This document shows positions 60,940 to 62,190 of a stretch of 64,000 nucleotides of DNA, piece after piece. Origin of the DNA: Escherichia coli (GTDB lineage Bacteria > Pseudomonadota > Gammaproteobacteria > Enterobacterales > Enterobacteriaceae); the NCBI RefSeq assembly GCF_022846255.1, contig NZ_AP025682.1; one strand, given 5' to 3'. How positions within the stretch are numbered: the stretch's first letter is position 1; the number at the start of each line of letters is the position of its first letter. The notes beneath the pieces were generated by a model. That model was not told the DNA's origin and ran no database searches. It saw nothing but the letters and a program-made list of their open reading frames with translations. The position numbers were made by a program, and so were the translations under genes.

Positions 60940-62190
60940 CTATAGCTGTTTATTCCAGAGATGCTTGAAAATATCTAATGTTGAGACAACATTGGCAGGC
61001 GACATTCGGTTTAATGAGGGTAGAAAGGGATGAGCCTCCAGGAAGTTGATAAAACGAGTCGCGCTTGCTAACGTCGAATACCGCATTTCATTTGCTTTCT
61101 TGTTTCCTGTAAGGTTACAAACAGCCATTGAATAATCACGGGCGGAAAATGCACGCCAAACATTATTTCTCACGCCATCACTCAAAAACAACCGCGGCGG
61201 CGTATCATAATGAGTCGTTTTCTCGCCGCGTTCTTTCACAAATGAAATATGGCACCGGCCTTGATGAATATGCTGTAAATTAGCCATTAGACAACCGCCT
61301 AATATAAAGCACTCGTGATCAAGGTAGTGTTGAATATTTATAGAATATGCTTCAGTCAGTGCTCTAACCAGTTCAAAATGGCGATATGCCGGAAGAACCG
61401 GTTTCACCAGCATCCCCGGATCGTTTTGATGTAATATCGCCCGACCATAATCAATATCAAATAAGGTATCACGCCGCATAGTAAGTAACTCCTTGCGTTG
61501 TACGTGATGCGCCAGTGTACCTGGAGACAAACGCTCTTCATAACTTGATGCATATTGATAATGCGACTCTACCGCTGATGAAGAATAATTTGTTGAAATA
61601 GCGACGACTCTACCGCTTTGTTCTTCTGCGGTAACAAGACTATAAAGATAGTTGTTACTACCGTTAAACTTTACGCGAAAAGCGCGGGTAGCGAGAGAAA
61701 TATCAGAAGCAGAAGAGTACTGGCAACTTTCTTTATAGTTTACTTCCCGGGCTAGTTTCATCAACTCACGGTTAAGCCCTGTGCTATTAAGAAGTAATAA
61801 TTTACGGATATCTGCAAGTGAAGCGCCTTGCTCAATCATCAATGCTAAATGTGTTCTTCGCGGCGTTGTATTTACATGATCCAGAGTGATAAAAGTTCTG
61901 GAACAATGATGACAATACATTCTCCTCTGCCCCTGAGCTGAATAGCCATACTTTTTCAGAGATGTGCTTCCGCAAGCTGAACATTGTGGAACCAACCCTC
62001 TCCATGAATGATTAACACGATTACGATAAATATTAAGAGATCGTTCAGATATCACAGGAAACAAGTAACCGCATTCACGGCATAAAATATTTTTACCCTG
62101 TGCGACATAATCCTGGCTATTCAGCACCCCCAGGTTTTTACATCCTGGTGTTTTGCAACAATCAACATTTACGTTGGTAAACATATCCAC
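60940..62190 (-). CDS. Hypothetical Cys-rich protein, 416 aa, with four N-terminal CxxC motifs (zinc-ribbon-like); function unknown
   Basis: ORF track; CCKTPGC, CRECG, CSACG, CHHCS in first ~100 residues; no radical-SAM CX3CX2C motif. Confidence 0.6.
   Translation of the reverse strand: MDMFTNVNVDCCKTPGCKNLGVLNSQDYVAQGKNILCRECGYLFPVISERSLNIYRNRVNHSWRGLVPQCSACGSTSLKKYGYSAQGQRRMYCHHCSRTFITLDHVNTTPRRTHLALMIEQGASLADIRKLLLLNSTGLNRELMKLAREVNYKESCQYSSASDISLATRAFRVKFNGSNNYLYSLVTAEEQSGRVVAISTNYSSSAVESHYQYASSYEERLSPGTLAHHVQRKELLTMRRDTLFDIDYGRAILHQNDPGMLVKPVLPAYRHFELVRALTEAYSINIQHYLDHECFILGGCLMANLQHIHQGRCHISFVKERGEKTTHYDTPPRLFLSDGVRNNVWRAFSARDYSMAVCNLTGNKKANEMRYSTLASATRFINFLEAHPFLPSLNRMSPANVVSTLDIFKHLWNKQL

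Follow-up and report, generated by a model that had tools for sequence, protein, structure and literature searches.

A domesticated, catalytically degenerate IS1-like transposase next to nhaA in Escherichia coli, proposed to regulate a Tsx-family channel/sulfatase cassette

Introduction

Transposases can be converted into regulators of their hosts. TnpB-derived TldR repressors and the domesticated DDE transposases of eukaryotes have lost catalysis, have kept DNA recognition, and serve as host regulators. Domesticated DDE transposases in this role are well known in eukaryotes; to our knowledge, they have rarely been documented as host regulators in bacteria. The bacterial genes for nucleoside scavenging are the province of other regulators: CytR and DeoR, which have the LacI and DeoR folds, act together with CRP on tsx, deo, nupC, udp, and cdd. 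In the insertion sequence IS1, the zinc finger and HTH of InsA give IR-specific binding and repress the IS1 promoter (PMC12428005).

Here we analyse a gene in a 64,000-nucleotide stretch of E. coli DNA (hereafter the window). Like InsA, its product has a Cys4 zinc ribbon followed by an HTH, and a DDE-fold domain lies downstream, as in InsAB'. InsA is a DNA-binding transcriptional repressor (PMC12428005), and a DNA-binding regulatory role is also what we propose for this protein. Unlike IS1, the protein carries an extra N-terminal zinc ribbon and is encoded by a single 414-aa ORF without a frameshift, two of its three catalytic residues appear to be replaced, and the gene is single-copy and syntenic, with no conserved terminal repeats. 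Its neighbours, and those of its relatives, are of the same kind as the CytR/DeoR targets (a tsx-family channel, deo, nupC, and PNP), and the CRP-like box and second element upstream in its cassettes recall CytR/CRP promoters; unlike CytR and DeoR, it is transposase-derived. It differs from TldR in having an IS1-like DDE ancestor and no guide RNA, and in that its regulatory role is only proposed.

Results

Gene, start codon, and existing annotation

The ORF spans 60940–62190 on the minus strand, between nhaA (59522–60688) and a sulfatase gene, and encodes 416 aa counted from a GTG at 62190. A first-pass annotation of the window had given the same limits, length, and nhaA neighbour, in agreement with the ORF listing. 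The GTG is two codons 5' of an ATG. All 46 aligned homologues begin with 'MF', and a Shine-Dalgarno sequence, GGGAG, is located 5 nt ahead of the ATG; because of these two features, the protein is probably 414 aa long and starts at the ATG (Table 1).

Existing labels are inconsistent. Annotations of the gene across complete E. coli genomes vary between 'IS1/IS1595 family N-terminal zinc-binding domain-containing protein', 'IS1 family transposase', and 'hypothetical protein', and proteins of the same fold in AFDB50 bear the names 'IS1 family transposase' or 'cytoplasmic protein'. Pfam gives no significant match to the single protein, PADLOC defence-system models match it with 0 families at E up to 1, and PHROGs returns a weak transposase match to the ribbon and nothing else useful. 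Sequence searches of the PDB return C2H2 zinc-finger matches only, which are spurious and stem from the cysteine spacing. A literature search on STM0035–37, sulfatase/Tsx cassettes, and IS1-derived regulators found nothing about this family.

Table 1 Features of the locus, in coordinates of the window.
Feature	Position	Strand	Details or basis
Gene of the 414-aa protein	60940..62184	minus	ATG at 62184, stop end at 60940
Zinc ribbon 1, residues 10–38 (C10, C15, C35, C38)	62071..62157	minus	Cys conservation; short strands in the AF2 model
Zinc ribbon 2, IS1 InsA type, residues 68–94 (C68, C71, C91, C94)	61903..61983	minus	NCBIfam, hhalign, Pfam
Predicted three-helix HTH DNA-binding segment, residues about 108–153	61726..61863	minus	
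RNase H-like (DDE-transposase fold) domain, degenerate triad	60946..61704	minus	
Terminator-like hairpin in the sulfatase–gene gap of 122 nt	62235..62265	minus	14 pairs, T-rich tail
Periplasmic Ser-type sulfatase	62313..63806 (ORF to 63842)	minus	SSPSR motif, signal peptide, NCBIfam
nhaA-side edge of the 4.0-kb accessory block	60928..60939		blastn, K-12 vs strain DCE7

Zinc ribbons and DNA-binding head

The first-pass annotation had quoted the motifs CCKTPGC, CRECG, CSACG, and CHHCS, had read them as consistent with two zinc ribbons, and had recognised no motifs in the ~300 residues that follow. All four motifs are found in the protein, and the reading is upheld: the second ribbon and the HTH match InsA. 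Among 30 homologues, whose identity falls as low as 18%, the eight paired cysteines vary little or not at all; therefore, the cysteine pattern is not due to chance.

In the NCBIfam search, IS1_IS1595_Zn matches residues 70–101 (E = 1.5e-7; 31.9 bits against a cut-off of 28), and this zinc-binding domain is the sole stretch of the protein recognised above cut-off. Scans of individual members with Pfam match Zn_ribbon_InsA in 5 of 30 family members and find nothing else. The family profile goes further: in hhalign, residues 64–145 cover all of IS1 InsA, that is, both the zinc finger and the HTH (probability 95.7%, E = 9e-9). The N-terminal Cys4 zinc finger and HTH of InsA type that mark the IS1 family are thus present. 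The HTH helices (residues 110–155) are modelled with pLDDT of 90–96 and resemble LuxR and sigma-4 domains. As modelled, the HTH would be a DNA-binding domain of a kind that regulators use, homologous to that of the repressor InsA.

The HTH segment is absent altogether from an enterobacterial subfamily of 378 aa (P0232, P0236, and P0081; L036, 7001–8137). Despite this absence, the subfamily is placed divergently to a 5'-nucleotidase/tsx operon. Its promoter has the string TTAGCGACCT in common with a paralogous sulfatase cassette (L010).

Transposase fold and catalytic residues

In an AlphaFold2 (AF2) model built from 47 homologues (pTM 0.81), the two zinc ribbons are followed by three helices and a core of order β1-β2-β3-α1-β4-α2-β5. 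The C-terminal 250 residues have the DDE-transposase fold, and Foldseek finds the same fold in many AFDB50 proteins of Vibrio, Photobacterium, Serratia, Proteus, and Enterobacter. From 1.84 billion representatives, a profile search recovers 379 relatives at E up to 1e-3. About 30 of them are distant full-length proteins of 400–510 aa. A second group comprises 'transposase-like proteins' of 550–610 aa (the P0237 group; AFDB Q11ZU0 and A7HVK5, 'insertion element protein'), which form 1414 clusters, mostly on contigs of about 2 kb, as repeats would be.

These long forms are homologous to the family over the full length (hhalign probability 100%, E = 4e-50, 450 columns). They have the same domain order, including the first zinc ribbon and a C-terminal YN motif, and their alignment to the IS1 model extends deeper into the catalytic part. 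Unlike the protein studied here, they are abundant, contain insertions of ~150 aa and a C-terminal TPAMRLGL tail, and keep the catalytic acids; the family studied here is chromosomally fixed and has lost the insertions and, by the mapping given below, the acids. In P0237–P0356, the double zinc ribbon, the HTH, and the D, E/D, E/D residues are all intact.

The long forms have an invariant Asp on β1 (VDRQ), an E/D right after β4 (HSEY/HSDY), and an E/D after β5 (DQES). The corresponding columns (D222, E/D356, and E/D383) are occupied in the family by Ala/Ser-Thr, Pro-Val, and Glu, and in the protein by Ala165/Thr166 for D1, Val263 for D2, and a retained Glu291; the mapping combines sequence alignment with predicted secondary structure rather than superposed coordinates. 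The three columns fit β1, the end of β4, and the segment after β5 of the AF2 model. By this mapping, two of the three catalytic acids appear to be lost in every member of the family. Polar and aromatic residues of the old catalytic core are invariant throughout the family: N199, Y211, R238, Y246, H269, H290, E291, and W343.

When the family is aligned with InsAB' by hhalign, the alignment does not reach into InsB, and no sequence similarity to InsB is detectable. Because the alignment stops there, the IS1 kinship of the catalytic domain rests on the fold and on the long forms. The long forms are presumably active transposases. As a group, they resemble a poorly annotated IS1-related group of insertion sequences and are the likely ancestor of the domesticated family.

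Distant homologues adjoin nucleoside-scavenging genes

All 8 examined loci of distant homologues (18–30% identity) are located beside deo genes, nupC, tsx, PNP, or 5'-nucleotidases, and most are divergent from them; three of the homologues (P0083, P0090, and P0094) belong to one subfamily, so the 8 loci are not all independent. The sources are Agarivorans, Motilimonas, Photobacterium, Proteus, Enterobacteriaceae, and metagenome contigs. P0073 is divergent from nupC-PNP. P0083 and P0090, from Agarivorans, are divergent from (nupC/TAL/add)-deoCABD and adjoin a Bmp nucleoside ABC transporter. P0094, from Motilimonas, is divergent from deoD-TAL-deoB-nupC and has tsx and add after it. P0232 (Enterobacteriaceae, 378 aa) is divergent from three 5'-nucleotidases and tsx, P0067 and P0100 (the latter from Proteus) are each divergent from a UshA-like 5'-nucleotidase, and P0151 (Photobacterium) follows a NadN/UshA-like nucleotidase. 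Divergent placement to catabolic operons is typical of regulators. Taken with the 29 of 29 cassette loci described below, the 8 of 8 distant loci amount to a conserved linkage to a defined gene set, a feature of the regulator class.

Such surroundings might also suit an enzyme. The RNase H-like domain could have been re-tooled as a cytoplasmic nuclease or as a nucleotide- or nucleoside-processing activity of the scavenging pathway, which would use the conserved His269, His290, and Glu291 together with the aromatic residues, with the ribbons and HTH serving as substrate-binding modules. The invariance of the eight residues in the old core, the retention of one triad acid, the involvement of nucleic acid-derived substrates in all neighbourhoods, and the P0232 subfamily, which does without the HTH, are in keeping with this. 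Set against these are the apparent family-wide loss of two metal-binding acids, a best-conserved sequence match that is the DNA-binding repressor module InsA, the divergent placement to catabolic operons, and the lack of any enzyme family match in Pfam or NCBIfam. An enzymatic function therefore seems improbable on this balance, while some residual or new catalytic activity is conceivable, given the conserved Glu291, His269, and His290.

The enterobacterial channel/sulfatase cassette

In Enterobacteriaceae, the gene comes directly after a sulfatase gene in all 29 mapped loci. The full cassette consists of a Tsx-family channel, the sulfatase, a radical-SAM/SPASM anSME, and the gene, in this order; the gene closes the operon and is read in the same direction as the others, not divergently. 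Full cassettes with anSME are found in Salmonella, Klebsiella, Citrobacter, Kosakonia, Phytobacter, Buttiauxella, and Scandinavium, and in them the gene begins 24–30 bp past anSME. The cassettes occupy three different chromosomal positions, most beside nhaA and a few at the two others. The tsx-like gene of Salmonella and Citrobacter is inverted and forms a pair with a UshA-like nucleotidase. There is also a paralogous cassette, whose version of the protein is 36% identical.

The anSME is absent from Escherichia (coli, albertii, and whittamii), K. oxytoca, K. spallanzanii, Kluyvera intermedia, and Phytobacter massiliensis. Comparison of the window gap (62185–62312) with two other loci (L002, 6786–7976; L005, 6801–7973) shows that Escherichia has lost anSME, which most other genera have between the sulfatase and the gene. 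Where anSME would be, Escherichia has a terminator-like hairpin; among the compared versions without anSME, Phytobacter massiliensis has the same hairpin and K. oxytoca has part of it. The Ser-type sulfatase of Escherichia may accordingly go unmatured or rely on another maturase, e.g. aslB or ydeM.

NCBIfam models for arylsulfatase and choline-sulfatase match the sulfatase. A crystal structure exists for a protein all but identical to the window sulfatase (PDB 3ED4, 'arylsulfatase'; phmmer E = 0, 1122 bits), and the closest characterised relatives of the sulfatase are steryl, GalNAc-6, and carrageenan sulfatases.

The first-pass annotation had held that the protein is not a conventional maturase, as it lacks the radical-SAM signature. 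In accordance, no CX3CX2C motif is found on reading its sequence, no Radical_SAM or SPASM match is obtained with NCBIfam or Pfam, and Salmonella, Klebsiella, Citrobacter, and others encode the true anSME in a gene of its own. A role as an accessory factor in making or exporting the neighbouring hydrolase, for example as a partner of anSME or a sulfatase-specific chaperone, could account for two Cys4 clusters in a protein whose gene always adjoins the sulfatase and mostly follows anSME at short distance. This possibility is disfavoured, and we give it only a slim chance, because the gene is kept under purifying selection in the genomes listed above that lack anSME and because distant homologues accompany cytoplasmic deo enzymes and NupC without a sulfatase; moreover, the fold is that of a DNA-binding head joined to a transposase core.

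The cassette is accessory in E. coli. The gene order in K-12 is dnaJ-IS186-mokC/hokC/sokC-nhaA, and in gene-carrying strains it is dnaJ-mokC-[ompK-sulfatase-gene]-nhaA. In a blastn comparison with strain DCE7, K-12 homology resumes 12 bp past the stop codon of the gene. What K-12 is without is a 4.0-kb block containing exactly ompK, the sulfatase gene, the gene studied here, and the promoter; the block runs beyond the end of the window at 64000. The earlier statement that the gene takes the place of hokC/mokC and IS186 in K-12 is right as to the approximate region, but the block is inserted between sokC and nhaA and coexists with mokC.

On the other side of nhaA, between ribF/rpsT and nhaR, the window contains a low-GC chaperone-usher fimbrial operon and espX1 (50000–58560). 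This region is annotated as accessory, and about 1197 of the 5426 complete E. coli genomes have it; elsewhere, there is nothing or an MFS/GH31 pair.

A fixed chromosomal gene rather than a mobile element

Of 5426 complete E. coli genomes, 1275 carry the gene, and the median number of matching places in a genome is one. All gene-carrying E. coli strains that were examined have it at this locus, and its position is shared by 19 enterobacterial species. Compared with other Escherichia, its dN/dS is 0.10–0.22, with dS up to about 1; the gene is under purifying selection.

The protein is not a member of the IS1 family. The IS1 transposase model (NF033558, transpos_IS1) gives 28.4 bits against a cut-off of 100 and aligns over profile positions 1–84 of 199 only, and Pfam DDE_Tnp_IS1 matches none of the 30 members. 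Beyond the zinc finger and HTH, the defining features of the family (an intact triad, a whole-protein score above the threshold, and terminal repeats, multiple copies, and variable sites) were tested for, and the protein has none of them. A clear assignment to a characterised family by profile search, which would have refuted the first-pass annotation, was not obtained: the IS1 model is far below its cut-off, and nothing in Pfam is significant.

In the window, the gene is bracketed by a 13-bp perfect inverted repeat (60867–60879 and 62300–62312; CCTGATAATCATA and TATGATTATCAGG), for which the chance expectation is roughly 0.03 in 2 kb. Other E. coli have the repeat in an imperfect form, E. albertii, Salmonella, and Klebsiella do not have it, and no conserved terminal repeats flank the gene across the Escherichia, Salmonella, and Klebsiella compared. 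Since it is degraded or absent in relatives, it probably does not represent transposon ends.

That the gene belongs to an insertion sequence that still moves or has only lately ceased to, a true IS1-family transposase gene beside the sulfatase by accident, is very improbable: the automatic 'IS1 family transposase' label in some genomes, the InsA-type zinc ribbon and HTH, and the flanking repeat in the window are outweighed by the score of 28 bits against 100, the apparent loss of two catalytic acids, the single copy at one position in 19 species, the decay of the repeat in relatives, and a dN/dS of 0.1–0.2 over a dS of about 1.

Many Salmonella entries in AFDB are truncated versions of the protein, e.g. 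Q8Z9N7 of S. Typhi (327 aa) and C0Q4H7 of S. Paratyphi C (247 aa). The truncated entries include host-restricted serovars, together with several other Salmonella and E. coli fragments, which suggests that the gene decays in some lineages.

Promoter elements of the cassette

The cassette promoters lie outside the window, beyond 64000, and were inspected in other loci (including L001, 11890–12400; L002, 4600–5192; L022; and L026). A CRP-like box, TnTGnnATCTnnATCAC (motif 1), is located upstream of the tsx-like gene. In 15 of 17 cassette promoters, counted from explicit string positions, a second element (motif 2), AAACAACAT-N5-TGACAC, is positioned 29–32 bp upstream of the CRP-like box. In Salmonella, Citrobacter, and K. 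spallanzanii, whose tsx is inverted, the pair of motifs occurs twice, once on the tsx promoter and once on the sulfatase promoter. The paralogous cassette retains the CRP-like box but has a different second element (CCCCACTTTTAGCGACC). Motif 2 is treated here as a candidate operator: its behaviour is as expected if the cassette's own fast-evolving regulator reads the second element, which is not proof.

Two known sites were compared with motif 2, and neither identity was adopted. It is without the TGCAA/TTGCA repeats of a CytR operator, and a weak half-site resemblance remains. As a second CRP site, it fits in one half (TGACA) alone, and a degenerate distal CRP site is possible.

Discussion

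That the gene encodes a domesticated IS1-like transposase with a degenerate catalytic site, fixed in the chromosome and under selection, is well supported by our analysis. The first-pass annotation had offered a regulator, a nucleic-acid-binding protein, or a degenerate transposase-like protein. The last of these is substantiated by the DDE fold with its degenerate triad, and the InsA-like head is consistent with the other two.

As to function, we put the chance that the protein is a DNA-binding regulator of the channel/sulfatase cassette at slightly better than even. We favour this role because the head is InsA-like, because the divergent placement of the relatives is typical of regulators, and because the cassette promoters contain a conserved element. 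The following scheme would connect these features. The protein has kept the DNA-binding head of an IS1-like ancestral transposase, consisting of the extra zinc ribbon, the InsA-type ribbon, and the HTH. The RNase H-like body has been kept as well, with two of its three acidic catalytic residues gone, and the gene has become fixed as the last in a cassette of a Tsx-like channel, a periplasmic Ser-type sulfatase, and, in some genomes, anSME. By likeness to InsA, which represses a promoter, the protein would bind DNA sequence-specifically and regulate the cassette, with AAACAACAT-N5-TGACAC in the cassette promoters as its candidate target, and the dead catalytic domain could serve in oligomerisation and/or effector sensing. 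We infer the binding at motif 2, the regulation and its direction, and the effector; motif 2 could belong to another factor.

A broader proposal, which we offer tentatively and consider unlikely to hold in full, is that the family is an unrecognised gammaproteobacterial family of transcription factors derived from a dead IS1-like transposase, in which the former active-site pocket (N199, Y211, R238, Y246, H269, H290, E291, and W343) would sense a nucleoside-like effector. In Agarivorans and Motilimonas, it would regulate the deo, nupC, tsx, and 5'-nucleotidase genes. In Enterobacteriaceae, it would regulate the Tsx-channel and sulfatase module, which may act on a sulfated compound resembling a nucleoside.

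Genes of this family should not be tallied as insertion sequences, and the present analysis corrects that misannotation. The family as a whole appears to have been recruited, in Enterobacteriaceae, Proteus, Vibrio, Photobacterium, Agarivorans, Motilimonas, and others. If the regulatory role is true, the protein would represent a new structural class of bacterial transcription factor, and a candidate regulator would be named for the nucleoside-scavenging operons of these marine bacteria. It would also provide a handle on an uncharacterised channel–sulfatase module, which Salmonella, Klebsiella, and Citrobacter carry, as do about one quarter of the complete genomes of E. coli.
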